Positions 33,309 to 51,466 of a stretch of 64,000 bases of DNA are shown one piece after another. Every line of letters starts with the position of its first letter. Position 1 is the stretch's first letter. The notes beneath the pieces are model-generated. The model was given only the letters and a program-made list of their open reading frames with translations, was not told where the DNA came from and did not search any database. Both the position numbers and the translations under genes were made by a program. This stretch comes from Escherichia coli (GTDB taxonomy: Bacteria > Pseudomonadota > Gammaproteobacteria > Enterobacterales > Enterobacteriaceae): assembly GCF_024223415.1 (NCBI RefSeq), contig NZ_CP100503.1; one strand, given 5' to 3'.

Positions 33309-34417
33309 GAACATCGTTAGTTACCCGTGAAGAGATGATCGAGGCAATTGAACAGCACACTGCCTGTATCAGTACCAGGGATATACCGGGCGTTATTGCC
33401 AACTACTTCATGATCACCAAACAACTTTACCGGAGAAAGGACAAAAACGCGGTTCACCGCATTCTGCTAACCGATATCCGTGAATACCTGCTCGAACAGG
33501 GTCATCTGAATTACGCAACCGTCGCAGCCGAAGCACGCAAGGAGGCACACAGAATGAAAGCAACTAACGTTAAATCAGAAAAAATTTATGCACCTTCAGT
33601 TCAGGAATCGGAACTGGTGGTTGTTCAGAATCAGCCGGATGAAATTCCCGTTCTGGAATGGCAGGGAGTACGTGTCGTGACAACCGAAACTCTTGCTAGA
33701 GGGTATGGGACCGAAACTAATAACATCAAAGTTAACTATACGCGTAATGCTGATCGCTTTGAGGAAGGTAAACATTACTTTCTACTAACTGGTTCAAAAT
33801 TAAAAGAATTGAAGGACAAGGTTACTCAAAGTAACTTAGTCGCACCGCGAGCAAAGCACCTCACTCTCTGGACGGAACGCGGCGCAGCCCGCCACGCTAA
33901 AATGCTCGAAACCGATCAGGCATGGGCATTCTTTGAAAAACTGGAAGACAGCTACTTCCGACAAAAAGAACAGCAACCGATCGCAATCCCCCAGACGCTT
34001 CCTGAAGCTCTGCGCCTGGCTGCCGAACTGGCTGAACAAAAGCAACTTCTGGAACAGAAAGCCCACCAGCTAAATCAGCAGCTGGTGGCCGCAGCCCCTA
34101 AAGTCGAGTTTGCCGACCGGGTATCAGTGGCCAAGGGGATCCTGATTGGGAATTTTGCAAAGGTTGTTGGACTTAAGCAAAACGCGCTGTTTGCCTGGTT
34201 ACGGGAGAACGGCATCCTGATAGCGTCCGGTGGACGTAAAAATGTGCCGTTCCAGCAATACATCAACGCCGGGTATTTCACGGTGAAAGAAGTGGTGCTG
34301 GATGATGAAGATGGCTACCAGATACGGTTGACGCCCCAGCTAACTGGGAAAGGCCAGCAGTGGTTGACGCGTAAACTGCTCGATGCTGGCTTGTTAAAAC
34401 CGGTGGCGGCTGAATAA
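33305..34417 (+). CDS. ant: Antirepressor Ant, copy c (ORF6N/Bro-like middle), 370 aa
   Basis: Collinear with copy a. The middle domain reads VLEWQGVRVVTTETLARGYGTETNNIKVNYTRNADRFEEGKHYFLL. Confidence 0.8.
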   Translation: MRTSLVTREEMIEAIEQHTACISTRDIPGVIANYFMITKQLYRRKDKNAVHRILLTDIREYLLEQGHLNYATVAAEARKEAHRMKATNVKSEKIYAPSVQESELVVVQNQPDEIPVLEWQGVRVVTTETLARGYGTETNNIKVNYTRNADRFEEGKHYFLLTGSKLKELKDKVTQSNLVAPRAKHLTLWTERGAARHAKMLETDQAWAFFEKLEDSYFRQKEQQPIAIPQTLPEALRLAAELAEQKQLLEQKAHQLNQQLVAAAPKVEFADRVSVAKGILIGNFAKVVGLKQNALFAWLRENGILIASGGRKNVPFQQYINAGYFTVKEVVLDDEDGYQIRLTPQLTGKGQQWLTRKLLDAGLLKPVAAE

Positions 34418-34459: not shown

Positions 34460-34708
34460 TTAATCAGCATTCAGGAGCAATGCGTTATCTATGATGATCT
34501 GCTCCCATTCTTCGAATGCCCGGTCGCGGACGCCCTGGGGAACACTGTTAGTTTTGAAATCGACGACCATACGCCATTTCCCGTCCGGACGGTACATGCG
34601 CAGAGCTTTACTTCCCCCTTCCCTGCGCACCTCAACGTTATGCTTGTCAGCAAACTCTTGTAATGCTCGTAGCGTCCCATGCTTTACTGTGTAGTATCGC
34701 TTTTTCAA
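34460..34708 (-). CDS. Hypothetical 82-aa protein
   Basis: ORF with ATGA-type overlap with the upstream 146-aa gene. No family recognised. Confidence 0.5.
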   Translation of the reverse strand: MKKRYYTVKHGTLRALQEFADKHNVEVRREGGSKALRMYRPDGKWRMVVDFKTNSVPQGVRDRAFEEWEQIIIDNALLLNAD

Positions 34709-35145
34709 GTTTTCTCTCCAGCCTGTGCCAAGGCTTCAACTTCCAAATCGTAAGACTCAAACTCATAGTCCTGGTCGTCAACTTCTTCAGGCACTGGCAG
34801 TAAGTGCCAGGCTGAGTATATCTGACCATTATCAAAACGCTCCTGGCTGTAGAGCGTCGCGGCTATGAGTGTTAGCGCCGGGCGGTCATAACGGTAAATT
34901 TTGCGAACGTCACGGTCAACGAGACGACCGAAATTACCATAACCGCGCTCCAGTAATAATTTTTTAATTTCCGGCCAGTATGGACCATAGCTGCGGTACA
35001 GGCGGTGATTTTTCAGTAATCGCCCGCGTAGCCCTGACAGGAAGAAATCAACGTATTCGTCTTCTGTCTTTCCTAACAACGCTGTACGGAGTACCGCCTC
35101 AAGATATGTTTTATTCGGTTTTATTGTATCAGATAGTGTGGCCAT
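34705..35145 (-). CDS. Hypothetical 146-aa protein downstream of the darB-like gene
   Basis: ORF lying 33 nt downstream of the darB-like stop on the same strand. Confidence 0.55.
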   Translation of the reverse strand: MATLSDTIKPNKTYLEAVLRTALLGKTEDEYVDFFLSGLRGRLLKNHRLYRSYGPYWPEIKKLLLERGYGNFGRLVDRDVRKIYRYDRPALTLIAATLYSQERFDNGQIYSAWHLLPVPEEVDDQDYEFESYDLEVEALAQAGEKT

Positions 35146-35178: not shown

Positions 35179-38100
35179 TTATGCGTATTGTTGGATGACG
35201 GCCAGAACGTCCGCCACGTTGTGTTTTGTCTCGATAATCCACCAGTTACCCGGGAAATCGCTGTTCTTCGCCTTCGCTGGCAGCCAGCGAGCGCCGAATT
35301 TCGCCTTGATTGCGTCTTTCGCACGGAAAAGAACCCCTTTCATGCCTGAGGCTTCCTGAAGCCCAAATACCTCGCCAGCGGCGAATTTTGGTGCGTACAT
35401 CATCTTCAGGTCGGCGGTGGATACGCGATAATTCAGGCCAAGAGACTGAGCTATGCTGGTGGCATCACCCTGTATTGATGATAACTCTTCTTGTTTCTCG
35501 TTTCTGGCGGCAATCTCTTCCTCCGTGATGTTGCCAAGGGCCAGGTTTATCCGATCAGCGTCGGCCTGTTTCTCTTCATCGGTGCGCCCGGCAAGAACCG
35601 TGTTAATTCTCTGCAATATCTCCACATGATTCTTGCGCATGCTGAGCAATTCCGGCGTAACCTCGTTAAGATCCACCAGCCCAAGGATGGCAAGGTCGGA
35701 AAACATTGATACCAGGTTGTAGGTCATGCGATAGCTGAGTTGACCATAGGCTGATGGCAACTTCACCGCATCCATTTGATAGGCATCCATAAATTTAGAG
35801 CCGTCGTTTACGACATCCGCTATTGCAGGTGTGATTTTCCCTGTGGTGGCGGCCTCCCTGATTGCTGTTACCCACGATTGAGTCAGCGCGGCGACTGCAT
35901 GATTCAGATTGGCTTTCCGTTCTGCTGCGATGCGCGCGCTTGCTGCGTCCATTGCCTGCTTGATCTCGGCTTTATTGCTGTAAATGCCAATGGTGCCAAA
36001 CTGTGCTGTGGTGATCTCATAATCTGACGCCCGGAACTCATTGGTACCGAAAATGGCATTGGTGACTTCAAGTTCAGAATCCCCGTTACGAGTAGCCCCC
36101 TGGCTTGTTTTTTCCGGCATTCTGGCGATCGCATCCGCTATTTTCTCCTGAATTGCTTCAGGGGATAGCGTATCTCCGTATGACGCGATTACATCGCCAT
36201 AATTGGAGCCAAACAATTCAACCAGGAATGTTTCTGCCGAACGGATCTGGCGGTTATTCCCTTCCGACATCATACCAAGCACCCATTTTGCAATTGACGA
36301 CTTCAGCGCGCCGTCACGGCGATCCGGGTAAACCGCATGCTTCAGTGGGTCCGTATAGGTACCAACAAAATCAATGCTATAGCCTGACTCTGTAGTCTGA
36401 ACGCCGTATGAGTCAGTGATTTTGATCATGCCGCGCTGCTGGAAACGGTAGAAATCGTCACAGGAAATGATGTCGTTAATCCCGGCGATGGAGACGCCAC
36501 CACTGATTTTCTGCATAACAGCATCTTCATCGGGAGTTACATCCACCTGTTTATCCAGCGTCTTCACATCCCAGTTACCCGATTTGGTGCCTTTGAAGGT
36601 AAAGATGATCTCCACGTCTGCGCGCTGGCTGTCGAAGTCCAGCGACTTAATGCGAACGATATCACCGGCACAATCGTAGTATTGGCCTACACGCCATGAG
36701 CGATCGCCGATAACAAGGAACTCACTCGCATGGTTAACCAGGTCAGGATCAACATCCAGAATGCCTTTATTTATTGCATCCTCCACCAGCGGGCGCAGGC
36801 GTTTGATATCCGTCGCGGCCTTCTGAGTACGGTTCAATAATTTCTCATAGCGGGAGATGGCTTGAGAGATATTAGCCTTGCGCTGAATGGCGTTTTTCAA
36901 CGACGCGCGATACTGTGCTAACAACATACGGTCTGTGTGATGGACGCTCCCCCAGCGGGCCTTCCAGTCTGCGTTATCAGCTGCTTTGGCCATTACCGCC
37001 TGTTTGAATTTAGCTACCTCGGCGGTGGTCTTTTCAAGTTCCGCTTTGCTTCGCTCTAATTCAGCGGTAAGTACCTCCACATCCTCGCCAGCTGCGTGCT
37101 GCGCCTTGATGTAGTTCTGAAGGTCGATAGTAGCCTGTTCTTTCTGGCGAGCGCGTTGCGCGGCTTTCGCCTTATCCATTTGAACCTGCATCATTGCCAG
37201 ACGTTCGCCATCATCCTTAGCGGTATACATCTGCATTTCGATCATATCGTTGGCGTCGGCGTTCTCCATTTCAGACTTATCTGAGCGGAGGATATCGGAG
37301 ATCCAGCCTGCTTTACGCTTCAGCGTCTTCAGTCGGTATTCATCGAAAGAACCCTTGCCGCAGTAGTAGTGAACGCGAACGCTTGCACGGTTGGAACCAA
37401 CTCGGGCACCGCGACCGTTACGCTGTGCGATACTGGCTGGTGTCCATGGCAACGTCAGATGATGGATGTCAGTCGTTCCTCGATGCAGGTTGATACCCAC
37501 CTCTGCCTTTTTGTTGCAGATGATGATCGGAGTCCGGCCCTCCTGGAAGTCGGCAGCAATCTTTTCCAGCCCACCCAGCGACATTTCATTTTGCTGCGCG
37601 ATATAGGCGTCATACAGAGCCATTTGCTCGTTGTATTTCGCTATCTGTGCATCTGTTGGTTCATCCGGTAGCTCTTTCGGCGGTTTAACCGCTTTCAGTT
37701 TCTTACCGGTTTTACCTGCCTCGGCAACCGTCTGAGCATTCAGGATCCCCACCTTTGAAGGTTCAAGGTTAAGAGCATTGCAGATAATGCGCTTGAGCTT
37801 CTGGTGTTGCGTTTTTTCATCGGTGAAGATGATTTGCTTACCTTCCGGGAAAAACTCCTTCAGCGTGGCGATCAGCTTCGCGTATTTCGGCGTAACGGGG
37901 TGAGTTACGGTCTGTTCGTCAATGCCAAACCTGGCCAGGCGCTTATTCACTTCCTGCTCGAACGCTTCCGGAACCTGCAACTGAATAAACTCGCCCTTAT
38001 CTATCAGGGAGTATTGCGATTGCTGCGTGATCGAATCATCACTGTCGTCGTCTTCGCTGGTGGCTTGTTTAGGCAAACTGTCCGCCAGCTGCTGCACCGC

Positions 38101-40068
38101 ATCGGCGTACTCCGGCAGGAAACGATAGGTGATCCTGCGATAGTACAGGTCCATGTCAGTACATACGCGGTCCATATCCCTGATTATTGAGAAGATCGGA
38201 CGGGCTTTCTCGTGCTCAATCACGCCGTCTTCATTGACCGAGGTCGTTACGCCATTGTTGGCTTTGGCTGCCGCTTCCGCCTGCTGACGCAATTCTTCAT
38301 ACGCCGCCAGTTGTTCTTCCGTAAGTGGTGCATCCTGCTGGTGTTCGTCCAGTTCCGGGATCTCCACGGTATCCTTAACGTCTTCCGCCGTTTTAAGCGT
38401 TGTCCAGCGATGGAATATGCCGCGCAGCGCATCAAGGTTTTCAAAGCCCACCAGCGCCATTTTTTCTTCAACTTCACCGCTAATTTTCTGTACCGTTTCC
38501 AGCCTGGTCTTGCCGAAGAATTTAACGAAGTCATCAGGACCGTAGATCCCCATCTTCTGCCAGTATTCCTTCGGCAGCACATGAGAAAGCATGTTGTATG
38601 CATCGATCGGGGTGTTAACGACTGGCGTTGCAGTCAGGAGAACCGGTCCGCGCCCACCATTCTTTTTCATCAGGTACGCGTTTTTAATTGCCATATCCCG
38701 CGCCGATTGCGCCACCGCGCTGGTGGGCAGATAGGCCAGTTGTGACGCTTCGCGACCATTTTTATAGCTATTGCGGTAGTTGTGACCTTCGTCAGCGATC
38801 ACACTATCGAAGCCCATATCCTCAAAGTACGGATACTTCTCTGCTTTTTCGGTGCCGGTATCTGAATACTCCGACAATACCCGGCGACGCGCGGCCTCTT
38901 TGCGGTGGGAGTCGGAGTCCATTGCGCTGGCTACGCGCCCGGCGGCAACGAAGTCATAAAGCATATCCTGTGCATGCTCATCTACGGTGTCATCACGTAG
39001 CGGAATGCGGGCGTATTGTTCTTTGGTAAACACGACTGCACGGTAATTTGAGTGCGGGATCGCGTTCATCCGCGCCGTGATAGTGGCTTCATCTGCCAGC
39101 TTAAGAGCATCGCGCATAACTGGAGTGCCATCAGTACCAAGAACAGGTTTACCGTTCTCATTGAGCACCGGCACCTGGCGAATCTGATCGCCATCCATCA
39201 GCACATCAAGACCGACGAACAGGTAGTTACTGAATGCCTCTTCACTCAGGAACTCTTTTGCTTCGTAATACCAGTTTTCCAGCACTGATTTAGGCACTAC
39301 ATACGCAGTACGGGTGGAACGACCGTTCTCATAGTTGAACGCCTCAAGCGCCAGCGCGGTCGTGGTTTTACCCAGCCCGGTACCGAAGCCCAGGATGCCG
39401 CGCCCATCTTCGGACAGTCGGCGCACCTCGCTATTCTGGTAATCAAATGGCTGTCGCTTACCGCTTAATCCCTTCAACCCAAGCGGATCGCCAGAGTGTT
39501 CATACGGGATATTGCTATTGAACACATCGTTGTATTTGGCAACCAGCTCATCGTAGCGATCGTGCGTCTTGATCCACTTATTGAACTGGTCCTCAAGCAG
39601 TGCCATCTGCTCGCGGTAGCCGTTCGCCGTCGCGCTATCTTTGCCACCGATACGCGCACCATTGAGATACTTTTCCAGCTGTGCCGGGAACCCGGTCGCG
39701 TTTTCACCTGATTTACGGTCCCACTCGTAGCGGATCTCGCCTGTTTCTTTATCCTTGCGCTGGACGACACCGTATCGGTGCCCGACGAACAGACCATCAC
39801 CACCGTGATAGGTGTCAGAAACCATTTCGTCGCCTTCCAGCTGCACTGACTGCACATAGCGAAGATCCGGATAGCCGTTTTCCTGCAAAAATTCCAGAAT
39901 GACGGAACGGTCGAACCAACGGCTATTGAGCTTAAAGCGGATATTCTCTGCTGGCGTCTTGATGCGCTTCTCTTCGATCGCTGCCAGCTGATTAAGGACG
40001 TTGTTCTTTACCCAGTGCGCCGTAAAGCCCCGTCCTTCAGGTCGGGGATATAAGGCGCGGTTTTCCAC
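35179..40068 (-). CDS. darB: DarB-like giant SF2 helicase, N-terminally truncated by IS copy 1 (native sequence ends at 40011; first 19 codons come from the IS left end)
   Basis: Helicase motifs GFGTGLGKTTTAL, VIADEGHNYRN, LLTATPVVNTP and QRNGRGARVG are present. The reading frame enters the IS at TTAC (40008-40011). No methyltransferase domain is present upstream. Confidence 0.7.
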   Translation of the reverse strand: MENRALYPRPEGRGFTAHWVKNNVLNQLAAIEEKRIKTPAENIRFKLNSRWFDRSVILEFLQENGYPDLRYVQSVQLEGDEMVSDTYHGGDGLFVGHRYGVVQRKDKETGEIRYEWDRKSGENATGFPAQLEKYLNGARIGGKDSATANGYREQMALLEDQFNKWIKTHDRYDELVAKYNDVFNSNIPYEHSGDPLGLKGLSGKRQPFDYQNSEVRRLSEDGRGILGFGTGLGKTTTALALEAFNYENGRSTRTAYVVPKSVLENWYYEAKEFLSEEAFSNYLFVGLDVLMDGDQIRQVPVLNENGKPVLGTDGTPVMRDALKLADEATITARMNAIPHSNYRAVVFTKEQYARIPLRDDTVDEHAQDMLYDFVAAGRVASAMDSDSHRKEAARRRVLSEYSDTGTEKAEKYPYFEDMGFDSVIADEGHNYRNSYKNGREASQLAYLPTSAVAQSARDMAIKNAYLMKKNGGRGPVLLTATPVVNTPIDAYNMLSHVLPKEYWQKMGIYGPDDFVKFFGKTRLETVQKISGEVEEKMALVGFENLDALRGIFHRWTTLKTAEDVKDTVEIPELDEHQQDAPLTEEQLAAYEELRQQAEAAAKANNGVTTSVNEDGVIEHEKARPIFSIIRDMDRVCTDMDLYYRRITYRFLPEYADAVQQLADSLPKQATSEDDDSDDSITQQSQYSLIDKGEFIQLQVPEAFEQEVNKRLARFGIDEQTVTHPVTPKYAKLIATLKEFFPEGKQIIFTDEKTQHQKLKRIICNALNLEPSKVGILNAQTVAEAGKTGKKLKAVKPPKELPDEPTDAQIAKYNEQMALYDAYIAQQNEMSLGGLEKIAADFQEGRTPIIICNKKAEVGINLHRGTTDIHHLTLPWTPASIAQRNGRGARVGSNRASVRVHYYCGKGSFDEYRLKTLKRKAGWISDILRSDKSEMENADANDMIEMQMYTAKDDGERLAMMQVQMDKAKAAQRARQKEQATIDLQNYIKAQHAAGEDVEVLTAELERSKAELEKTTAEVAKFKQAVMAKAADNADWKARWGSVHHTDRMLLAQYRASLKNAIQRKANISQAISRYEKLLNRTQKAATDIKRLRPLVEDAINKGILDVDPDLVNHASEFLVIGDRSWRVGQYYDCAGDIVRIKSLDFDSQRADVEIIFTFKGTKSGNWDVKTLDKQVDVTPDEDAVMQKISGGVSIAGINDIISCDDFYRFQQRGMIKITDSYGVQTTESGYSIDFVGTYTDPLKHAVYPDRRDGALKSSIAKWVLGMMSEGNNRQIRSAETFLVELFGSNYGDVIASYGDTLSPEAIQEKIADAIARMPEKTSQGATRNGDSELEVTNAIFGTNEFRASDYEITTAQFGTIGIYSNKAEIKQAMDAASARIAAERKANLNHAVAALTQSWVTAIREAATTGKITPAIADVVNDGSKFMDAYQMDAVKLPSAYGQLSYRMTYNLVSMFSDLAILGLVDLNEVTPELLSMRKNHVEILQRINTVLAGRTDEEKQADADRINLALGNITEEEIAARNEKQEELSSIQGDATSIAQSLGLNYRVSTADLKMMYAPKFAAGEVFGLQEASGMKGVLFRAKDAIKAKFGARWLPAKAKNSDFPGNWWIIETKHNVADVLAVIQQYA

Positions 40069-40485
40069 CTAACCAGGTGTTTGCTGTTGTTCAATGTATT
40101 GGCGGATGATGGATATTGGTGCGCCACCGCAGCTACTGGCAAAATAGCTGGGACTCCATAAAACGCCTTTGTAGTAATATCGGGCTGCAATATCTGGTCG
40201 ATCTCGTCGCAATAATCTACTCGATACGCCCTTGAGACTGTTCACCAGGCTGGATATCGCCAATTTGGGGGGATAGTTAATTAGCAGGTGAACGTGATCT
40301 CGTTCTCCATCCATTTCAACCAGTTCAGCTTCAAAATCAGCACATACACTTGAAAAGTAAGTGCGTAGTTTTTCTATTGCGTCATGGTCAAAAATCTGAC
40401 GTCGGTATTTTGCGACAAAGACCAGGTGAACGTGCATCAGGAAGACGCAGTGTCTTCCACGTCGGATATCAGTTTCTTTTTTTAT
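40069..40485 (-). CDS. tnpA: TnpA Y1 transposase, copy 1; canonical ATG replaced by ATA
   Basis: Same protein as copy 2 (KKETDIRRGRHCVFLMHVHLVFVAKYRR...SYFASSCGGAPISIIRQYIEQQQTPG), but nt 40483 is T where copy 2 has C. The copy-2 start codon is therefore ATA here. The track's 178-aa ORF uses an upstream ATG. Confidence 0.7.
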   Translation of the reverse strand: MKKETDIRRGRHCVFLMHVHLVFVAKYRRQIFDHDAIEKLRTYFSSVCADFEAELVEMDGERDHVHLLINYPPKLAISSLVNSLKGVSSRLLRRDRPDIAARYYYKGVLWSPSYFASSCGGAPISIIRQYIEQQQTPG

Positions 40486-40507
40486 GGACCAAAGTATAAT
40501 TTGGCTT

Positions 40508-41716
40508 ATGAAACGACTACAAGCTTTCAAATTCCAGTTAAGACCAAATGGACAGCAGGAGCGTGAAATGAGGCGCTTCGCGGGCGCATGTCGTTTCGTT
40601 TTCAATCGTGCTCTGGCGCTTCAGAATGAGAATCATGAGGCCGGGAACAAATATATTTCTTATGCAAAGATGACTTCCTGGCTGGTTGAATGGAAAAATG
40701 CTACTGAAACGCAATGGCTTAAAGATTCTCCCTCACAGCCATTGCAGCAGTCACTGAAAGACCTTGAGCGAGCCTACAAAAATTTCTTTCAGAAGCGTGC
40801 CTCTTTTCCCCGCTTCAAAAAGCGGGGACAGAATGATGCATTCCGCTATCCGCAGGGCGTTAAGCTCGACCAAGGGAACGGTCGTATTTTTCTGCCAAAA
40901 CTTGGCTGGATGCACTACCGGAACAGCCGTCAGGTCTCGGGGATTGTGAAAAACGTCACTGTCAGCCAGTCCTGCGGTAAGTGGTACATCAGTATTCAGA
41001 CAGAAAGTGAAGTATCAACTCCGGTTCACCCTTCAGCATCAATAGTCGGTCTGGATGCAGGCGTGGCTAAACTCGCCACGCTGTCAGATGGCACAGTCTT
41101 TGAGCCTGTAAACAGTTTTCAGAAAAACCAGAAGACGCTGGCGAGACTTCAGCGACAGTTAAGCCGCAAGGTCAAATTCAGCAACAACTGGCAGAAGCAG
41201 AAATGCAAAATACAGCGACTGCATTCCCGTATCGCAAATATCCGCAGGGACTACCTTCACAAAGTCACAACGACCGTCAGCAAAAACCACGCCATGATAG
41301 TCATTGAGGATTTGAAGGTCAGTAACATGTCAAAGTCAGCAGCGGGTACGGTCAGCCAGCCGGGGCGCAATGTCCGGGCAAAATCAGGTTTAAACCGTTC
41401 GATACTGGATCAGGGCTGGTATGAAATGCGCCGTCAGCTTGAGTACAAGCAGCTCTGGCGAGGCGGTCAGGTGCTTGCGGTTCCGCCAGCGTACACAAGC
41501 CAGCGTTGCGCGTGCTGTGGTCATACAGCGAAAGAAAACCGCCTGTCACAAAGTCAATTCAGATGCCAGGTATGTGGATATACAGCGAACGCCGATGTAA
41601 ACGGCGCTCGTAACATTTTAGCGGCGGGGCACGCCGTTCTTGCCTGTGGAGGGATGGTGCAGTCAGGCCGCCCGTTGAAGCAGGAACCCACCGAAATGAT
41701 TCAGGCGACAGCCTGA
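40508..41716 (+). CDS. tnpB: TnpB, copy 1
   Basis: [17 protein letters not shown]... with IVGLDAGV, the CACCGH..CQVCGY zinc finger and ADVNGARNI. The track start 40484 is probably 8 codons too early. Confidence 0.9.
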
Positions 41717-41797
41717 ACGTAGCAGGAATCCACGTCCTTCAGGGCGTGGAGGATGTCAATGGAGCCTCCCCTTCTCTGCCGACGTTCAGGGGGGTTT

Positions 41798-42835
41798 ATG
41801 AAAACACCTCTCGTCACCCGTAATGACATAGCCGAAGCGATCGCCCTGCATACTGCCTGTATGCCGACACGGGAGATCCCCGGCGCAATTGCCAACTATT
41901 TCATGATAACCAGACGTTTTTATACCCGAACAGATAAGGCTGTGATCAACAAGCTACTGATAGCCGAGATCAGGGATTATTTGATTGAACAAGGACGTCT
42001 ACGTTACGCAACAGTGGCAGCAGAAATGAGAAAGGAGGCACATAGAATGACCGGTAATAATTTAAATGTTGAAAAACCAGCACCTGTTGCTTCAGCTACG
42101 CCAGCACCAGCCGTGAATATCATCCCCAACACCGGAGACACAATCGACAGCCTGACACTGTTAAAGATGGTCAATGAAGCGCGTAAGTTATGTGGGGAAC
42201 CAGAGGTTCGGAACAACAAATTCATCGAAAAAATACTCGATGAGCTTGATGGTGAGCACTACACAAAAAGTGTAGTGGAAAAAATGAACAAAACATCAAT
42301 GCTTGTCATAACCATGACTTTCAAACAAGCCCTGCGAGTCGCCGCGCGCGAGTCAAAAGCGGTCCGCCGTTCGCTGATCGACAAACTGGAAGAATTACAG
42401 CAGGCAAACTCACCTACCCCATCGATCCCCCAGACATTACCAGAAGCCCTACGCCTGGCTGCCGAGTTGGCAGAACAGAAAATGCAGCTGGAACAACAGC
42501 TGGTGGCCGCAGCCCCTAAAGTCGATTTTGCCGACCGGGTATCAGTGGCCAATGGAATCCTGATCGGGAACTTTGCAAAGGTCGTTGGACTTAAGCAAAA
42601 CGCCCTTTTCTCATGGTTGCGCCAGAACGGCATTCTCATGGCTTTTGGTGCGCGCAAAAACGTACCGCGCCAACAGTACATCAACGCCGGGTATTTCACG
42701 GTGAAAGAAGTGGTGCTGGATGATGAAAATGGCTACCAGATACGGCTGACGCCCCAATTAACGGGTAAAGGCCAGCAGTGGTTAACTCGCAAGCTACTTG
42801 ATGCTGGTTTGTTAAAACCAGTAGCAATAGGTTAA
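41798..42835 (+). CDS. ant: Antirepressor Ant, copy d (native immI position upstream of kilA), 345 aa
   Basis: MKTPLVTRNDIAEAIALHTACMPTREIPGAIANYFMI... has the same three-part architecture, with the middle domain as in copy b. The upstream 38 nt resemble the 3' end of icd and abut the IS right end. Confidence 0.8.
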   Translation: MKTPLVTRNDIAEAIALHTACMPTREIPGAIANYFMITRRFYTRTDKAVINKLLIAEIRDYLIEQGRLRYATVAAEMRKEAHRMTGNNLNVEKPAPVASATPAPAVNIIPNTGDTIDSLTLLKMVNEARKLCGEPEVRNNKFIEKILDELDGEHYTKSVVEKMNKTSMLVITMTFKQALRVAARESKAVRRSLIDKLEELQQANSPTPSIPQTLPEALRLAAELAEQKMQLEQQLVAAAPKVDFADRVSVANGILIGNFAKVVGLKQNALFSWLRQNGILMAFGARKNVPRQQYINAGYFTVKEVVLDDENGYQIRLTPQLTGKGQQWLTRKLLDAGLLKPVAIG

Positions 42836-42848
42836 CAAAAGAAAAAAA

Positions 42849-42871
42849 CCTGCCAGCAAACTGGCAGGTTT
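42849..42871 (+). terminator. Rho-independent terminator after ant(d)
   Basis: cctgccag-caaa-ctggcagg followed by ttt. Confidence 0.6.
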
Positions 42872-42913
42872 CTGAGCAGATCGTCCAACCCGATCTGGAT
42901 CGAGCCAGAAAAA

Positions 42914-42930
42914 TTTGCTCTAATAAATTT
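42914..42930 (+). promoter_or_regulatory. C1 operator (Op53-like) controlling kilA-repL
   Basis: tttgctctaataaattt, 16/17. C1 control of the kilA-repL operon is established for P1. Confidence 0.8.
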
Positions 42931-42999
42931 CGTTTTCTAAGTGCAAAGAATCACCATTTCGAGCTGGTGATTGAAGGTTGATGCAAATTTGGAGAAAAA

Positions 43000-43800
43000 A
43001 TGCAACAAACATTCAATGCGGATATGAATATATCAAACCTTCATCAAAATGTCGATCCTTCAACCACTCTGCCTGTTATTTGTGGTGTTGAAATTACGAC
43101 CGACCGCGCTGGCCGTTACAACCTTAATGCTCTACACAGAGCGAGCGGACTCGGTGCCCATAAAGCGCCAGCTCAATGGCTAAGAACGCTGTCAGCCAAA
43201 CAGCTCATCGAAGAGCTGGAAAAAGAAACTATGCAGAATTGCATAGTTTCGTTCGAAGGCCGTGGCGGCGGCACTTTTGCCCATGAATTGCTCGCTGTGG
43301 AGTACGCAGGCTGGATTTCTCCCGCGTTTCGGCTGAAGGTAAACCAGACATTTATCGACTATCGAACCGGAAGATTACAACCTGCTATTCCGCAGAGTCT
43401 CCCTGAAGCTCTCCGTTTGGCTGCCGACCTGGCAGAGCAAAAGCAACGGCTGGAGCAAAAAATGCTTATGGATGCACCTAAAGTCGAATTCGCTGAACGC
43501 GTTGCTACCGCCAGCGGGGTTCTAATCGGCAACTATGCCAAAGTGCTCGGCCTGGGCCAAAACTATCTCTTCACCTGGTTGCGTGATAACGGAATTCTGA
43601 TCGCAACCGGTGAACGCAGGAACGTCCCCAAACAAGAATACATATCTCGTGGGTATTTCACCCTTAAAGAAACCGTGATCGATACAAGCAATGGAAGCAG
43701 GATTTCTTTCACGACTCGTATAACCGGCAAAGGTCAGCAGTGGCTGATGAAGCGATTGCTTGATGCTGGTGTGCTGGTACCTGTCGCGGCAACGCGCTAA
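43000..43800 (+). CDS. kilA: KilA (KilA-N domain + KilAC/ANT domain), 266 aa
   Basis: The N-terminal KilA-N region (RYNLNALHRASGLGAHKAPAQWLR...GTFAHELLAVEYAGWISPAFRLKV) and position upstream of repL match P1. Confidence 0.85.
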   Translation: MQQTFNADMNISNLHQNVDPSTTLPVICGVEITTDRAGRYNLNALHRASGLGAHKAPAQWLRTLSAKQLIEELEKETMQNCIVSFEGRGGGTFAHELLAVEYAGWISPAFRLKVNQTFIDYRTGRLQPAIPQSLPEALRLAADLAEQKQRLEQKMLMDAPKVEFAERVATASGVLIGNYAKVLGLGQNYLFTWLRDNGILIATGERRNVPKQEYISRGYFTLKETVIDTSNGSRISFTTRITGKGQQWLMKRLLDAGVLVPVAATR

Positions 43801-44675: not shown

Positions 44676-44678
44676 TAG

Positions 44679-44695
44679 ATTGCTCTAATCTGGAG
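44679..44695 (+). promoter_or_regulatory. Possible C1 operator half-match
   Basis: attgctctaatctggag has only the 11-nt core conserved. Confidence 0.35.
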
Positions 44696-44725
44696 TCACC
44701 TGGCGTTTTCAGTTTGAGGTCGGAG

Positions 44726-44971
44726 ATGCAATCTGATTTTTTACAGTTAGCGATCGCTTTTGCAGGATATGTTTGTATTGGCTTCTGTGTATACATGATC
44801 AGCCGAAGAATGCTTGTCGATATCGACCGCAAAGAACGAACAGAGGAGATCTTAGTATGGATTTTCTTTGGCGCGGTCTGGCCATTAGGGATCATGTTTG
44901 CTGCAACATTTCTTCTGATGTGGATATTCACCCTTCCTGGTGATTTCTATAGAAAAAAAGCCAGACATTGA
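44726..44971 (+). CDS. Small membrane protein (P1 rlfA position), 81 aa
   Basis: MQSDFLQLAIAFAGYVCIGFCVYMI... shows two predicted TM segments, with SD ggag 3 nt upstream. The track ORF starts at 44645, inside repL. Confidence 0.45.
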   Translation: MQSDFLQLAIAFAGYVCIGFCVYMISRRMLVDIDRKERTEEILVWIFFGAVWPLGIMFAATFLLMWIFTLPGDFYRKKARH

Positions 44972-45153
44972 TACAATCGTTACGGGTGCTTGAGGCTATC
45001 TGCTTCAGGCATTACCCGAAAAGCAGATAGAAGAAAGCCCCAGATAACATTACGCGTCCTGCAAGACGCTTAACATTAATCTGAGGCCATCTCTATGCTT
45101 AGCATACGTAGATTAACCCTCTCCCCTTTTAAGGAGCAAGGAATTTTTTACTG

Positions 45154-45750
45154 CTATGCCGCATTTCCAATTATGGATTCAGCGACCAGAACAACCCCAT
45201 GCTTACTTCGATCTGGGTGTTCACTCCATATCTCGGATTCAGGAATACTTACCCCGTCATAGCAAACACGTTCGCCGTCAAACGGGTAATACTGAGCGGC
45301 ATCGGTGTCAAGGATAAACACTTTTAGCTCGGAAGAGCGACGGGCGATGTGTTGCCAAAGAGCTTTTCCACCTTCGTATTGCTCATTATCACTGAGCAAA
45401 ACAACACCAGCTTTTGAGGCTACGGTTTCGTAAACAAAAGTAGCTAAACCGACATCCCGGACGGTTCCATCAACCACGATACCTTCAATCTGGGCAACAT
45501 CGCTATCCTCCCAGAACTTCCTTACCAGTACGCCTTCAAGCTGCGGGCGACGTTGAAGTTCAAGAGTAGCGACAACCTTATGGCGCATATCACCATCGAT
45601 AATAGAAGGCGCAGCCTCTATTACAGCTGCAAATGGGGTTTTGGAATCCCATATAACCTGGTAAAGCACACCCTGGATGGTAACTCCGTCCAGGATCGAA
45701 AATCGACGAGCGACAGTACCCGGGGAGTACGACATTGGAATCACAGCCAT
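45154..45750 (-). CDS. Hypothetical 198-aa protein
   Basis: Track ORF is 45154..45786. ATG 45750 has a good SD (aaggggga). No family recognised. Confidence 0.55.
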   Translation of the reverse strand: MAVIPMSYSPGTVARRFSILDGVTIQGVLYQVIWDSKTPFAAVIEAAPSIIDGDMRHKVVATLELQRRPQLEGVLVRKFWEDSDVAQIEGIVVDGTVRDVGLATFVYETVASKAGVVLLSDNEQYEGGKALWQHIARRSSELKVFILDTDAAQYYPFDGERVCYDGVSIPESEIWSEHPDRSKHGVVLVAESIIGNAA

Positions 45751-45877
45751 TTTAGAGTCCCCCTTTAACAGTACAGGCACAAACATCTACCTCAATAATT
45801 GTAGTTTATTAGAACATTAATAATCTAACATAAAACTCCAGACAATGTTATCGATGCATGTTTATATAAAATAGTTA

Positions 45878-45900
45878 TAAAAAAAGCTCCCGAAGGAGCT
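45878..45900 (-). terminator. Rho-independent terminator ending the structural operon
   Basis: Minus strand reads agctcc-ttcg-ggagc followed by ttttttt. Confidence 0.7.
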
Positions 45901-45921
45901 TTAAAATACAAGGGATGACTC

Positions 45922-46431
45922 TTAATCCCACTCAATCCAGTTGTAGACGATACGAAGTGACGGGCGCACAGCGGCAGTCACATCTTCGGTACTAAAGTCG
46001 ATTGCATCACTGTAGATTTTGCAGTCCAACATTTCAATTGTTGTAGCAGCTTTTGTCACAGCGTTAACCCCGGAAGATTTGGATTCAGGGGTCGCAGCCA
46101 TCGTGATATCAACATAGTCCTTCGCCGCAATGCGATCCTTGATGAACTGAAGAATATCGCCTTCGATAGTCTCCACGCACTGGACCTGGATTTCCCCAGA
46201 GTTTCGAATTGGTCCGTGCTGGTTGAACTTCACACCATTCGGACCATAGTCCTCCACATCCTCGCGGGTCATTTCAGGAATTTGCGACGTGCGAACCAGT
46301 ACGCTGATATCTTCATGGCCTGCAAAAGTGAGCTGGAATTCAGAAGATACCAGTCGTTCGCCTTTGGCCGCGTTGGCAGTATAGCGGCCCTTAATAAATT
46401 TACGGTTTCCCTTAGTGTTATTGTGCCCCAT
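45922..46431 (-). CDS. Structural protein, 169 aa (P1 bplB position; tube/baseplate-like)
   Basis: Last gene of the 23-22-21 operon. The assignment is by synteny only. Confidence 0.55.
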   Translation of the reverse strand: MGHNNTKGNRKFIKGRYTANAAKGERLVSSEFQLTFAGHEDISVLVRTSQIPEMTREDVEDYGPNGVKFNQHGPIRNSGEIQVQCVETIEGDILQFIKDRIAAKDYVDITMAATPESKSSGVNAVTKAATTIEMLDCKIYSDAIDFSTEDVTAAVRPSLRIVYNWIEWD

Positions 46432-46442
46432 ATAAAATCCTT

Positions 46443-47024
46443 TTACTGGAACGCCCGAACAATATCGGAGCTGTTATATATCGAAGAACCGGTCAACTGG
46501 AGGTTGACGGTGTTTTTCAGGAAATGCCCATTGCTGTCCCTGGGCGCATCGAGATCGAAACTTATGTCCTGGATAGCGACATCAATGATGTTGATCCGGC
46601 GACCAATGTTTAGCGTCACACGCTCCGGGATTCGACCACCAATACTGGCATCTTTGAGTTCCGGGCTAATCATCGCTGACAATGCGGCGATAGCTCCTGA
46701 AACCTCCGTGAATGGGTCAAACAAAGCGATGAAAGTTACTGGCAGCGTGAAAGTCGGCGGTGTTCCCCCTTCCCAAACCATTAAGCTGTTCCAACGAGCA
46801 ACAGACGTTGTTTCAGTACCAACCTGCGCAAAACCACTGAAGGCACCAGCAACAGAACCCATGGACATACCAGTAAAAGGTGCTTCCCAATTCTGGGCCA
46901 TGTTCATTGCCGCCCCCTGGCTGATATATCCGGTAACCTGGTACTGAGAGTTCGTTAAAGTAACTTTCAGAAATGGCGATACACCGTCAGCCTGGCTGTA
47001 AACCCCATAAGGTATAGGTGCCAT
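46443..47024 (-). CDS. Structural/morphogenetic protein, 193 aa (P1 pmgG position)
   Basis: Operon context only. Confidence 0.55.
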   Translation of the reverse strand: MAPIPYGVYSQADGVSPFLKVTLTNSQYQVTGYISQGAAMNMAQNWEAPFTGMSMGSVAGAFSGFAQVGTETTSVARWNSLMVWEGGTPPTFTLPVTFIALFDPFTEVSGAIAALSAMISPELKDASIGGRIPERVTLNIGRRINIIDVAIQDISFDLDAPRDSNGHFLKNTVNLQLTGSSIYNSSDIVRAFQ

Positions 47025-47059
47025 TCAAGTTAAAGGCCGGAGTTCTCCGGCCTCCTCCT

Positions 47060-47875
47060 TTAGCCGAGGCGCTTACGGCGCAGTTTCATTGACTTTTTGC
47101 GGGCCAGTTTTGCCGCGCCGGTCTGGGCTTTACGACGCGCTTTTTTCAGCGCCGATTTTTGAGCCGCAGTCAGACGTTTTTTACGCAGGCGTTTACGGAT
47201 GAGTTTGATCTCACCGTTACGAACAACCTTCTTAAATGCTTCAGTCAGCATTTCATCAGAAGTGCCAGCAACAACAAACGCCGCTTCCAGTTCGTCACGG
47301 TCGTCGCTATCTAAACCAGCGATAGAGGCACCAACATCAGCAGCTGCGTCGTCGTCTTCATCGTCAGCCAGTGCTTCGATCAGGTCATCATCTACACCGC
47401 ATGCTGCGAGGAAGTCAGCAACATTTGCCCATGCTTCGTTATAGGCATCGTCCTGTTCTTCTGTAACTTCGGAGTCGTCGTCATCAGAGATACCAGCGAT
47501 AGCCTGAACGAAACCATCAAGGGAGTCGAAAGTCAGATCACCGCTATCAGCCCAGGCGAAAACGGCGTCGGCCGCATCACTCAACGCATTCTGCATAGCA
47601 CTTCGATTTGCAGCTTCCAGAATCATCTGGTGCGCCTGTTCGACGGTCCATTCTTTACCGTCTTTCCCTTCCAGGATTTGCTCAGGAGCCGGGGCAGATG
47701 GAACGTTATCGTTAGTCTGTGCCGCCGGTTCCGGATTATTATTAATAACCGGATCTGTTGGCGGTTCGGCGCTTGCTCGGGCAGACTCCATCAGCTGCAC
47801 AGGATCAGAGTTCAAAGCGAAACGGGACAGTCCATTCCCCAAAAATGCCCCGGATTGAAAAAAGTTTTTGCTCAT
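47060..47875 (-). CDS. Acidic protein with highly basic C-terminal tail, 271 aa (P1 gene 21 position)
   Basis: A D/E-rich centre and the tail RKRLRKKRLTAAQKSALKKARRKAQTGAAKLARKKSMKLRRKRLG. Synteny supports the position. Confidence 0.6.
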   Translation of the reverse strand: MSKNFFQSGAFLGNGLSRFALNSDPVQLMESARASAEPPTDPVINNNPEPAAQTNDNVPSAPAPEQILEGKDGKEWTVEQAHQMILEAANRSAMQNALSDAADAVFAWADSGDLTFDSLDGFVQAIAGISDDDDSEVTEEQDDAYNEAWANVADFLAACGVDDDLIEALADDEDDDAAADVGASIAGLDSDDRDELEAAFVVAGTSDEMLTEAFKKVVRNGEIKLIRKRLRKKRLTAAQKSALKKARRKAQTGAAKLARKKSMKLRRKRLG

Positions 47876-47884
47876 TGTATTCCC

Positions 47885-49474
47885 TTACTTAATAAGCAGC
47901 GGTACGCCCTGGATACGACGGGCTACGCCAGTCGGGCAGCAGGCCCAGACTACTTCCCATTTATCGAATTCCGCCTGCGTAACTTTCAGCACATACGGTT
48001 CTGTACCGTCAGCATCGGGATCACGAGGAGCCACCAGAGCGCCGGAGGCGACAAAGCGATCTAAAAGTTTGGTCATCCCTTTAGTCAGGCCAGCCGCAGT
48101 AATACCGTCCGGGCTATGCTTCATCTGTCGGGCTAACTGGACAAAGAAACGGCTGATTGCATTCATCAGGGATGGGACGTGCTGGAAGTGCAGATAGTTA
48201 TCCTGCGTGCAGCAAGTTAAAGCATCGTCGATGATCATCTGGCCAGAGGTGCCAACAGATACTTTATTGAGACGGCCCTTGACCATTGCTTCTTCGTCCG
48301 GGGTATCTTCCGGATACAGCGGTTGAATTGACGCACGAGCAATGACGGCACGTTCTTCACCAGCCGGTGAGTAATGCCAACCGCCGACATCAGAGTTTTT
48401 CTTGACGCCATGAGCTTTCGCCGCATACGCCACGCCAGACAGACCAAAGACCACACGGGATTGGGTCCATTTGTCTTTGCAGGAGAACGGATAGTGATAG
48501 AAAGAACAGCTTACATAATCGGTACCAAGTAAACCGGTATCTTCAACAGCAGACAGCGCTTCCGTATACGTCAATGTCGGTTTGACATCAAAGAAGCCAT
48601 CAATCAGGCGATCAGAACAGATATTACCTAACGCGGTGATAGCCGCATTGTCATAGCAGCCCAGGCCAAGAACAGCGGTGTACATGTACGGCGCATTGTT
48701 CAGCACTTTCACCGCACGCAGGTACGCAGCGGTTGAGATTTTCGACTGATCACCGTTGGTACCACCAGTGAACGCCAACGATTTTTTGTTTGTTACTTTC
48801 GCTGTAGAAATCAGATCTTCATTAACAACCGCGCGCAGATATTTAGAACGGGCTTCCAGAGCCGTAGGCAGATAACACAAGCGGCCCATATCATCTTTCG
48901 CTTCTTCCGCCAAAGACACAGTGTGTGTCTCCAGGGTCGTTACCACGCCGAGCGAAGTCGTCTGGGTCAGTTTCAGGAGGAAGCGTTCATTACCTGCGCT
49001 GTCCGCTGTTGCCATTTCGATGGTTAACTCACGGGTAGGTGAAATACACGGATCACCATCATCAACGTAGATAGCAAAGGCTTCGCCGCTATCAAGTTCA
49101 ATTTCAGAACCGTATGGCAACGCACTGTAAGCCGGTTCGCCTGATTCATCGAACATAATAACCGGGAACTTCGCATCATCCGGAACAGCACGGACAACAT
49201 AACCAGACGTTTGCTGAATAGCTTCGTATACATGGCGAATTGGTTCGAACTGTGAGCCGGAAGACGGCTTCAGCGGTTCGCCGAGAACATCTTCGTAATT
49301 GGACTCAGTAACCGCAAGAACAGTAAACGGCTTGCCACGCGCAAATACGCCAATACCAGCCCACAAGCTGCTATTTAATGCAACACCGGTAGATAACATC
49401 GCATCGGTATTGATCGGGCTAACCGCGACGCCGGATGCATTACCTAATGACTGTTGAATTGAATATTGAGACAT
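47885..49474 (-). CDS. Probable contractile tail sheath protein, 529 aa (P1 gene 22 position)
   Basis: The size and position between genes 23 and 21 match P1. The sequence family was not independently verified. Confidence 0.6.
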   Translation of the reverse strand: MSQYSIQQSLGNASGVAVSPINTDAMLSTGVALNSSLWAGIGVFARGKPFTVLAVTESNYEDVLGEPLKPSSGSQFEPIRHVYEAIQQTSGYVVRAVPDDAKFPVIMFDESGEPAYSALPYGSEIELDSGEAFAIYVDDGDPCISPTRELTIEMATADSAGNERFLLKLTQTTSLGVVTTLETHTVSLAEEAKDDMGRLCYLPTALEARSKYLRAVVNEDLISTAKVTNKKSLAFTGGTNGDQSKISTAAYLRAVKVLNNAPYMYTAVLGLGCYDNAAITALGNICSDRLIDGFFDVKPTLTYTEALSAVEDTGLLGTDYVSCSFYHYPFSCKDKWTQSRVVFGLSGVAYAAKAHGVKKNSDVGGWHYSPAGEERAVIARASIQPLYPEDTPDEEAMVKGRLNKVSVGTSGQMIIDDALTCCTQDNYLHFQHVPSLMNAISRFFVQLARQMKHSPDGITAAGLTKGMTKLLDRFVASGALVAPRDPDADGTEPYVLKVTQAEFDKWEVVWACCPTGVARRIQGVPLLIK

Positions 49475-49534
49475 AACTTTCCCTGTTATGCGCCCCGCAC
49501 GGGGGCGCTATGTTAAACGGAGAACTTCCCCTGA

Positions 49535-51262
49535 TTACTCAGAGTCACCGGCATCAATCGTGTCGCCGCTTATGAAGTTAAGCCCGCCTTTTTTGGCCAT
49601 TGTCAGCGTTACACGAGTGAAGTAATCAGCGCCGTTGCGTGGGTGCATATCGTTGATAGCCGAACCCCACAGCGTGGTACGGTTGACCAGCGCCGGAGTG
49701 GTCGGATGCTGGAACGGGATGGCCGGGACAGCATCACCAGTCACGAAGCCTGCTTTACCCGGATTTTCATCACGGACGTAGCACAGCACATCCATCGAGC
49801 TGAACTGAATGTTCTCTGTCGTTAAGTTCTTACAAATACCAGCAGGTACTTCGTACACTTTCACGTTACCGAACAGGGTACCGATGTAGTGAACATACGG
49901 AGTCTGGATATAGTCTTCGGCTGGCTGGAAGAAATCCTTCGGCAACTGTTTGAAGAAAGATGCTGCATCAGCACCAGCAAACATCCCCATCGCACCAGAA
50001 GATTTAACGCGCTCAATAATGTCGCGATATACAGTCTGGAATTTGCCACGAATGATGGTTGCCCATACATCAAAGGACTGGTTAACCGGCAGAGCGATGT
50101 CAAAGGTGTCGTTCGCAAGAGTACGCCAGATCATGATGCGAAGACGCAGCATATCCTGTTCATGAGACAGGTATTCCTTCAGGGTGCGGAACTGTAGGGA
50201 ACCCAGGTCCAGACCAAATTCACGCTGTGCTTCATACGCCGCCTGTACCGTGTGCTCAGCCGCGATAACGAACTGGCTTGGGAACAGGGTGTATTTCTTC
50301 ATTTCGTGGTTGATCAGCGGGATCAGCTCAGGAGCGGCTTCAATATTGATTTCCGTCTCAATTGCGATCTCAGTGCCTTTATCCGGCGCTTTGGAGAACG
50401 ACAGGGCAATCTGACCAATGTTGTAGTTCAGAGAGCAGGTAACAGTGATTTGCTCACCAGCAGCATTAGTAAACGAGTGAAGTAGGCTGCCGGAACCGTT
50501 ATCAACAACAGACTTAATACGGTTAACGTAGATATTAGTGCGACCTTTTCGGATTGGTACATTCTGGCCTTCGAAGTCTTCCATCTTGAAGGTTGCGGTT
50601 TTGCTGGTGCCATCGGAGCTTGCCACCAGCACATAGCGGCGGCGTAACTGGCTGTACACACCGACGGATTGCATGTCCAGAACATCACCAGCAGCATAAG
50701 AACCAAAAGAGGAACCTGCCACGTTAAAGACTTCATAGATGTCGGACTGGTCACGCGTAACCGGAATGAAGGTACACGCATCAGCGGTAGCTGCCCCCAA
50801 CTGAACAGGCAGGATCATCGCGAGGAATAAAGGCAGACGCATAACACCGTCAGAAACGCTCATCATCTCTGCTGCGACGGATTCCAGCATCGCTTTATTA
50901 GTGGCATCCATGCTATTGCGGGTAGACTCAATCAGGCAGTTTTCCAGCGTCTGGTGGCAGGAGGCCAGAATTTCCGGACGCGGCATAGATTTATGTGCTG
51001 CGGCGTAGTCAGCCAGTGCACTTGCCCACGCTGTAGCGATTTGAGCGGTGGCATTATCAGAGATACCCGCAAAAACCGGGTCTTTACGTGCAGCTTCAAG
51101 GATAGATGCGGCACGCGCGGCATCATCTTTAATGAATTGGTTATCAGTACCGAACTGCGCAGTGCTTGCCCAGCCAAGCACAGCTTTAGAGCGTTTTGCG
51201 ATATCTGCAATACGATTCTGGTATTCGCGTAAGTTACTCAATTTACTCTTCCTTAAACACAA
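49535..51262 (-). CDS. Probable major head protein precursor, 575 aa (P1 gene 23 position)
   Basis: The size and position immediately adjacent to parS/parB match P1. Assignment is by synteny. Confidence 0.6.
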   Translation of the reverse strand: MCLRKSKLSNLREYQNRIADIAKRSKAVLGWASTAQFGTDNQFIKDDAARAASILEAARKDPVFAGISDNATAQIATAWASALADYAAAHKSMPRPEILASCHQTLENCLIESTRNSMDATNKAMLESVAAEMMSVSDGVMRLPLFLAMILPVQLGAATADACTFIPVTRDQSDIYEVFNVAGSSFGSYAAGDVLDMQSVGVYSQLRRRYVLVASSDGTSKTATFKMEDFEGQNVPIRKGRTNIYVNRIKSVVDNGSGSLLHSFTNAAGEQITVTCSLNYNIGQIALSFSKAPDKGTEIAIETEINIEAAPELIPLINHEMKKYTLFPSQFVIAAEHTVQAAYEAQREFGLDLGSLQFRTLKEYLSHEQDMLRLRIMIWRTLANDTFDIALPVNQSFDVWATIIRGKFQTVYRDIIERVKSSGAMGMFAGADAASFFKQLPKDFFQPAEDYIQTPYVHYIGTLFGNVKVYEVPAGICKNLTTENIQFSSMDVLCYVRDENPGKAGFVTGDAVPAIPFQHPTTPALVNRTTLWGSAINDMHPRNGADYFTRVTLTMAKKGGLNFISGDTIDAGDSE

Positions 51263-51378
51263 GGCACTTGTGTGAATCCCTTTTCGGAAGAGATTTTATT
51301 GAAAGTCACTTGTTGACTTTCTCGTGACAAGCAATTTTTTTATTTTTTTCGGGAGTAGGGGAGGAAGGTAAAATCCAA

Positions 51379-51462: not shown

Positions 51463-51466
51463 AAGT

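Follow-up and report, generated by a model that had tools for sequence, protein, structure and literature searches.

In phages P1 and P7 the immunity locus immI is arranged as Op51/P51-c4-icd-ant1/ant2, and the antirepressor gene ant is normally subject to C1 and C4 control. In the P1 vir and virs mutants ant is freed from this control; P1vir has point mutations in the immI region, and these are associated with obligate virulence and a very high level of ant1 expression (PMC8198154; PMC8201110). P1-like plasmids are furthermore remodelled by insertion sequences (IS): IS-mediated inversions and deletions take out morphogenesis modules and modify or delete immI (PMC6906374), and pJIE250-3, pSvP1 and pTZ20_1P are P1-like plasmids with IS609-type elements whose right cleavage site is TCAA (Venturini et al. 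2019). Here we report on an ant gene, ant-d, and on the IS that abuts it, in a stretch of 64,000 nucleotides of Escherichia coli DNA (assembly GCF_024223415.1, contig NZ_CP100503.1) that we refer to as the window. Judged by BLAST against phage, plasmid and E. coli collections and by synteny with pMTY1886_untypable_1 (NZ_CP128972), from which the layout given below was drawn, the window is that of a P1-like phage-plasmid.

The ant-d locus resembles the immI of P1 and P7 in its ant open reading frame (ORF), in its place before Op53-kilA-repL and in the ATGA overlap between icd and ant1; it differs in that the operator, the promoters, the C4 RNA, the a1/b1 and a2/b2 target sites and icd codons 1-60 are missing. 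Homology and position identify ant-d as the phage-plasmid's native immI antirepressor gene (ant1/ant2), and it is intact. A complete IS of 1,748 bp, copy 1 of two near-identical copies in the window, directly precedes what is left of icd, and on its other side lies the gene darB, shortened at its 5' end. We consider it probable that copy 1 marks a recombination joint between darB and the 3' end of icd, and that ant-d has been orphaned by it, most likely with a weak, C1- and C4-free expression too low to break repression. In pJIE250-3 all of immI is gone together with repL, whereas the joint described here leaves ant intact. A further derivative, pMB9366_2 (NZ_CP103510.1, a 63-kb IncY/IncFIA plasmid; locus L004, 11562-14465), has prt joined almost directly to repL and represents an independent deletion of the same morphogenesis and immI block; it keeps the lxc-darB-prt side, has also lost ant and kilA, and is not flanked by this IS. 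The features of the joint are as follows.

35179-40011, minus strand: darB remnant
40012-41759, plus strand: IS copy 1
40028-40047: left-end hairpin of IS copy 1, with a TTCA loop
40069-40485, minus strand: tnpA of IS copy 1
40508-41716, plus strand: tnpB of IS copy 1
41589-41775, plus strand: putative omega (right-end) RNA, its scaffold formed by the tnpB 3' end and the right end of the IS, its guide at 41760-41775 (TGGAGCCTCCCCTTCT)
41729-41750: right-end hairpin of IS copy 1, with a TTCA loop
41748-41761, plus strand: candidate translation start site made by the junction, with GGAGG at 41748-41752, a spacer of 6 nucleotides and ATG at 41759-41761
41756-41759: terminal TCAA of IS copy 1
41760-41801, plus strand: icd remnant, the last 13 codons (WSLPFSADVQGGL) and a stop codon overlapping the ant1 ATG (ATGA)
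41798-42835, plus strand: ant-d (ant1, 345 residues), with a Pfam ANT/KilAC domain
42844-42873: GC-rich hairpin terminator after ant
42914-42930, plus strand: C1 operator Op53 (OrepL) before kilA-repL, retained (operator match and P1 annotation)
43000-43800: kilA, downstream of ant-d as in P1
43830-44675: repL, after kilA as in P1

Homology of this region to the P1 family begins at 41760 in phage records, in thousands of E. coli plasmids and in ten IS-free P1-like contigs (55-94 kb, with the match beginning at their position 9963). Position 41760 corresponds to position 48650 of P1 (NC_005856), where icd occupies 48470-48691 and the ant1 ATG lies at 48688. The 41 nucleotides from TGGAGCC to the ATG are identical to the relatives throughout and to P1 at 40 positions, compared with about 26 of 41 (~63%) for the three other icd alleles of the window; because the similarity to the relatives and P1 lies so far above that to the paralogues, it reflects orthology rather than chance. 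The initial annotation had read the sequence to the right of 41759 as the 3' end of icd plus the ATGA junction, and had allowed that a similarity of 38 nucleotides might be fortuitous; the reading holds and the reservation can be dropped. An intact icd has 73 codons, of which codons 1-60 are gone at this locus and 13 are left, and the latter fall outside the active core of Icd, residues 12-51 (PMC11897509).

The ant-d gene itself is full length and shows no decay. Its product of 345 residues is 94% identical to P1 Ant1, and its DNA differs from that of the relatives by three synonymous changes in 1,076 nucleotides. The ant2 start lies in frame within it at 42047 (M84, conserved) and is preceded by AAGGAGG at 42032-42038, 8 nucleotides before the ATG. 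The exact protein was found in 554 blocks of public assemblies, and in all ten places shown a complete icd of 73 codons stands upstream of it; in the relative L007 the identical Ant also follows a C4 RNA and a1/b1 targets. Among the relatives examined, ten of ten have this allele behind a full Op51-c4-icd unit. The comparison with IS-free relatives that the initial annotation had proposed thus comes out in its favour, as does its placement of ant-d upstream of kilA-repL, with which the positions of both genes agree.

Copy 1 belongs to the IS200/IS605 family and is IS608/IS609-like. It yields Pfam matches to Y1_Tnp (E 7e-42), OrfB_IS605, Cas12f1-like_TNB and HTH_OrfB_IS605, and its TnpB aligns over the full length with ISDra2 TnpB (8BF8, E 6e-57), including the RuvC D-E-D triad. 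All four structural hallmarks of the family that were looked for are present, namely TnpA, TnpB, subterminal hairpins without terminal inverted repeats, and TTAC/TCAA ends without target duplication. The boundaries are common to copy 1, to a second copy in the same orientation (copy 3) and to two independent copies from other assemblies (L023 and L024): in each the left flank is TTAC, the IS starts with CCAGTGCG and finishes with GGATGTCAA, and the right end, TCAA, lies 9 nucleotides past the foot of the hairpin. In IS608, TTAC is both the target and the left cleavage site, and TCAA, 10 nucleotides from the hairpin, the right one (PMC3201880); IS609 in P1-like plasmids has TTAT/TCAA cleavage sites (PMC6906374). 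Copy 1 shares with IS608 of Helicobacter pylori and IS609 of E. coli the Y1 TnpA and TnpB, the subterminal hairpins and the TCAA end. It differs from them in its divergent tnpA and tnpB; its left site is TTAC, where TTAT has been reported for IS609 (PMC6906374), and its DNA is ~90-95% identical to chromosomal IS609-type copies. ISEc46, as annotated in RCS47, was considered for the identity of the element and rejected, there being no blastn similarity.

Copy 3 is 99.5% identical to copy 1 and lies 3' of a TTAC in dmt; the window ends 39 nucleotides short of its right end. The start codon of tnpA is ATA in copy 1 (40483-40485) and ATG in copy 3 (62763-62765), and copy 1 is probably non-autonomous, unable to make its own transposase. 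The two TnpB proteins differ at two residues (T191M and C233R), and the exact TnpB of copy 3 occurs only on two short contigs, which confirm the ends of the IS and offer no context. A perfect TATAAT is found at 40495-40500, 7 nucleotides upstream of the tnpB ATG and with no recognisable -35 element; it went unflagged by the consensus scan and is possibly a weak promoter for a leaderless tnpB mRNA.

To the left of copy 1, homology to darB (the 'N-6 DNA methylase' of P1-like plasmids) stops exactly at 40011, with TTAC at 40008-40011 abutting the left end of the IS. The darB remnant has been shortened by ~1.9 kb at its 5' end, and the N-terminal methyltransferase part has gone with this stretch; Pfam detects only SNF2/helicase domains in what is left; of the gap between lxc and prt, 6.9 kb in pMTY1886, 4.8 kb is kept in the window. 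To the right, the flanking sequence is directly preceded by TTAC in P1, in the ten relatives and in the three paralogous icd genes of the window, the bases after the TTAC being TGGAGCC, TGGAACC or TGGTGCC across this set; all five intact alleles examined have the TTAC. In pMTY1886 the two flanks of the IS lie 32,039 bp apart, separated by the darB 5' end, prt, pro, lyz, ssb, the dar operon, tail fibres, cin, sit, pmgB, tub, pmgC, sim-like genes, c4 and the icd 5' end, and the window matches this ~32-kb segment only through an IS-related tnpB and the paralogous c4-icd sequences. A simple insertion of the IS into icd is rejected, as the left flank is darB and not an icd 5' part ending in TTAC; neither C4 RNA nor operator was found within 6 kb to the left of copy 1. 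The proposal of the initial annotation that ant had been decapitated by an IS insertion therefore needs to be replaced: what lies to the left is a 5'-truncated darB, and ~32 kb of backbone is missing from between.

The geometry leads us to infer two insertions. One IS copy would have inserted 3' of a TTAC in darB, and a second copy, in the same orientation, 3' of the conserved icd TTAC, 39 nucleotides short of the icd terminus; the two 1.75-kb repeats would then have recombined homologously, taking out the ~32 kb between them and, with it, Op51/P51, c4, the a/b target sites and icd codons 1-60. Same-orientation copies are to be expected because the IS200/IS605 family inserts into the lagging-strand template (PMC5027513). 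An endpoint directly 3' of the icd TTAC is unlikely to have arisen by chance deletion because TTAC is rare in the window (0.0037 per position, or 0.37%). The other IS605-family element of the window, copy 2 (27358-29169), was rejected as a recombination partner, since it is a different element and only ~650 nucleotides of tnpB are common to both.

The loss of control elements from ant-d is extensive. Of five features of a complete P1 immI operon, four are absent from the locus and the nested ant1/ant2 ORFs before kilA-repL are present. Rfam places C4 RNA only at 22329-22416, 31116-31201 (minus strand) and 32954-33039, with none near ant-d, and both C4 and c4-a1b1 matches are confined to three other modules of the window. 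C1-operator matches lie at 22137, 31386 (minus strand), 32753 and 42914 (Op53), with no match between 35000 and 42900. Operator and promoter scans found no Op51 and no P51a/b at the locus, and a consensus scan of the plus strand found no sigma-70-like promoter from 39900 to 43100. An icd-frame start codon downstream of the stop at 41598-41600 was likewise not found, and icd coupling is for this reason lost. The Rfam, operator and icd-frame results agree with the initial annotation that ant-d is without Op51/P51, c4, the a/b sites and the coupling to icd. They do not bear out its suggestion that other c4 circuits might compensate: the three resident C4 RNAs are unable to do so because their target sites are missing from any ant-d transcript.

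Those three modules, each a complete Op-c4-icd-ant unit, occupy 22151-23804, 29786-31402 (minus strand) and 32753-34417, and all comprise a C1 operator, a C4 RNA and an icd of 73 codons. The second and third, carrying ant-b and ant-c, form an 811-nucleotide inverted repeat around mat and have an a1/b1 target match, and the first, carrying ant-a, has an isrK match upstream of its C4. Ant-a and Ant-c possess an ORF6N N-terminal domain, and the centre of Ant-b resembles Ant-d and P1 Ant1.

How, then, might ant-d be expressed? Any sense transcription able to reach the gene would start within the IS, either as tnpB mRNA or as an omega-RNA precursor. On the plus strand no intrinsic-terminator-like site was detected between the tnpB stop at 41716 and the ant1 ATG at 41798, which makes transcriptional read-out from the IS possible. 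The right-end (omega) RNA of TnpB elements is ~150 nucleotides long and takes its last ~16 nucleotides from the flanking DNA (PMC8612924); since the RNA reads into the flank, transcription would normally cross the right end of the IS. Three sub-threshold Rfam matches lie in the region: HgcC at 41649-41770 (E 0.002; 24 bits against a gathering threshold of 50), which spans the IS boundary into the icd remnant, sot0042 at 41589-41750 (19 against 88) and RAGATH-18 at 41643-41686. Before the function of TnpB was known, non-coding RNAs had been reported at tnpB 3' ends, HgcC and sot RNAs among them.

Translation poses a separate problem. The coupling between icd and ant was reportedly described by Heinrich and colleagues in 1994 and by Biere and colleagues in 1992. 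According to the P1 GenBank annotation icd is required for ant expression, a requirement also given in PMC8201110. Across five icd alleles a hairpin can be drawn in which CCUCC of the icd 3' end pairs with the ant1 Shine-Dalgarno sequence and the TTAC region pairs with the AUG; in these alleles, which are a small sample of related sequences, one compensatory change is seen along with several of the G-U type, and the hairpin is kept in the remnant at 41765-41794. The native ant1 Shine-Dalgarno sequence would hence stay locked in this conserved hairpin, with no icd-frame ribosomes to open it. Two other routes are conceivable. At the junction-made start the IS contributes the A of the ATG, as its final base, and the flank contributes the TG, as its first two; this ATG is in frame with ant1 and adds 13 residues, and ribosomes initiating there would translate through the hairpin to give Ant1 extended by 13 residues. 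The second route is the strong ribosome-binding site of ant2, which is unstructured in fold predictions. Low, unregulated read-out from tnpB or omega-RNA transcription is the most likely state of ant-d as far as the sequence can tell, and our best estimate is a weak constitutive supply of Ant, independent of C1 and C4, that would be tolerated since tnpB transcription is presumably low. Both the strong immI promoter and icd are retained in the vir mutants but missing at ant-d, from which far lower expression would be expected, in an element that persists as a plasmid. Should the loss of the 32 kb be real, derepression could moreover no longer end in lysis.

Several results weigh against this combined account of origin and expression. 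No omega-RNA family is found at the IS end at Rfam gathering thresholds, the consensus scan did not pick up a sigma-70-like promoter for tnpB, and single-sequence folds of the junction are no better than those of shuffled controls. Neither a darB::IS or icd::IS precursor nor either junction occurs in any of the collections searched (megablast against phages, PLSDB and complete E. coli genomes; exact-pattern scans of viral, genome and metagenome contigs), and exact-protein look-ups returned no record of the Ant ORF as extended by the junction, of the ORF fusing Dmt to the IS, or of copy 1 TnpB read from either of two alternative starts. Finally, the right flank of copy 3 and the rest of the replicon lie beyond the window, within which deletion and translocation cannot be told apart. 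The main functional rival to weak expression is silence: tnpB would be barely expressed, read-through would be stopped at a TnpB-bound right-end hairpin or by Rho acting in the untranslated leader, and ant-d would be a recent, inert relic. The empty promoter scan of the plus strand speaks for this, as do the sequestered Shine-Dalgarno sequence, the lost coupling and the evident viability of the carrier, and the intact ORF with its three synonymous differences is no objection if the event is, as it may be, very recent. TnpB elements, however, characteristically make right-end RNAs that cross the IS boundary, no intrinsic terminator intervenes, the ant2 ribosome-binding site is strong and open, and an ATG with its own Shine-Dalgarno sequence has arisen in frame at the junction; we regard silence as a distinct possibility that falls short of probable.

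With regard to the fate of the 32 kb, the excised segment might have formed a circle with one IS and re-integrated at another IS copy, for instance copy 3 in dmt. This third same-orientation copy, at 62292, has its right flank beyond the window, which also lacks the ~6.3 kb of backbone expected from the dmt 3' end up to and including ban; the replicon therefore continues past the window. Such a translocation requires two recombination events instead of one and has left no trace in the window, and we consider it unlikely, if worth keeping in mind. Were it true, the phage would be complete, with the Op51-c4-icd-5' half of immI elsewhere on the replicon, and the control of ant-d would still not be restored, the c4 target sites being gone from it. 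Plain deletion, which needs one recombination event, would leave a defective plasmid of ~70 kb and has precedents in pMB9366_2 and in the plasmids of PMC6906374, is the more likely. The joint could also be an artefact in which darB::IS, icd::IS and dmt::IS are all real and the assembler jumped between repeats, dropping the 32-kb segment. Copies 1 and 3, same-oriented and 99.5% identical, are the very setup for a repeat-collapse misjoin, and the junction is unique among all collections searched; yet a contig of more than 64 kb that runs through three IS copies and keeps 8 copy-specific single-nucleotide differences indicates that reads spanned the repeats, and other deletion derivatives of P1-like plasmids over the same region exist (pMB9366_2; the cases in PMC6906374), which renders an artefact very unlikely. 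Highly improbable, too, is an older deletion that fused the darB TTAC to the icd 3' end and was then entered by a single IS at this TTAC. IS200/IS605 elements insert 3' of TTAC without duplication, and one insertion into darB-TTAC-TGGAGCC would look identical; but such a deletion calls for a chance coincidence at one or both TTAC ends, no IS-free joint of darB and icd was found in PLSDB, complete E. coli genomes or the contig collections, and a deletion at the 4-nucleotide TTAC/TTAC microhomology, while conceivable, is far less plausible than recombination between homologous stretches 1.7 kb long.

A corollary concerns TnpB. The predicted target of copy 1 TnpB is TTAC followed by TGGAGCCTCCCCTTCTCTGC, and the 20-mer of TTAC plus guide is identical to the intact native icd in ten of ten relatives and has one mismatch in P1. 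It occurs nowhere else in the window; in the three icd paralogues, 5 of the 16 bases of the guide, the fourth among them, do not match, and these genes would probably be spared from cutting. From established TnpB biology one would expect an active copy 1 TnpB to cut relatives in which immI is intact. One may speculate that copy 1 is more than a scar: its TnpB, which appears intact, and an omega RNA with the guide TGGAGCCTCCCCTTCT would be programmed against TTAC-TGGAGCCTCCCC in the native icd of a widespread group of P1-like phage-plasmids. Incoming or co-resident relatives would then be cut at immI, resulting in accidental RNA-guided exclusion or incompatibility, and unregulated Ant-d could meanwhile derepress their C1-controlled genes; we judge this unlikely.

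The remainder of the window is laid out as follows.

1-22133: pmg/lpa/pacAB backbone, carrying a type I restriction-modification insertion at 10686-16896
22151-23804: extra c4-icd-ant module (ant-a), between pacB and c1
23837-24688, minus strand: c1
25662-27386: higBA and cre
27358-29169, minus strand: IS copy 2
29786-30850, minus strand: ant-b c4-icd-ant module, inverted relative to the ant-c module around mat
33305-34417, plus strand: ant-c c4-icd-ant module, inverted relative to the ant-b module around mat
34705-35145, minus strand: lxc
44676-59630: baseplate, sheath and head genes, then parBA and repA
59631-62291: dmt
62292 to 64000 (window end), plus strand: IS copy 3

The type I restriction-modification cluster (hsdR 10761-13877, hsdS 13999-15237, hsdM 15234-16796) is extra in comparison with pMTY1886. 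It is also present in other P1-like contigs, which have in addition a solo tnpB between lpa and pacA; the relatives recovered by hsdS look-up differ from the window in their IS content. IS copy 2 has inserted a few bases before the stop codon of cre (26334-27386), swapping the last three residues of Cre (DGD) for a tail of ten; the first 340 residues are identical to those of a relative. Downstream of repL, a sok antitoxin RNA at 44984-45158 (Rfam, 91 bits) indicates a hok/sok addiction module at the position where P1 has the rlfA and rlfB genes. The Dmt ORF (59631-62333) is cut ~627 nucleotides short of its end by IS copy 3. It has Pfam matches to Hint_2 (residues 77-126) and LAGLIDADG_3 (residues 298-361), which suggests that the C5-methylase part of Dmt harbours an intein bearing a homing-endonuclease domain; the stretch 59865-60884 of dmt is without match in pMTY1886.

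IS-driven remodelling of P1-like plasmids is already documented, and the ant-d locus does not overturn the current understanding of it; what is particular here is the exact joint of darB, IS and icd 3' end, an intact ant without its controls and a start codon made by the junction. In annotation, the replicon should be flagged as a rearranged and probably defective P1-like prophage, with darB cut short and 32 kb of head, tail and lysis genes missing from their place. The predicted guide of copy 1 offers an inexpensive test case for a TnpB directed against the immunity locus of a phage. As a natural experiment, the locus may reveal how far P1 ant expression depends on icd translation and on control by C4 and Rho, and what level of uncontrolled Ant is tolerable in a C1/Lxc lysogen. 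For the family at large it points to a route of decay, in which same-orientation IS200/IS605 copies would serve as the direct repeats along which phage-plasmids break down.

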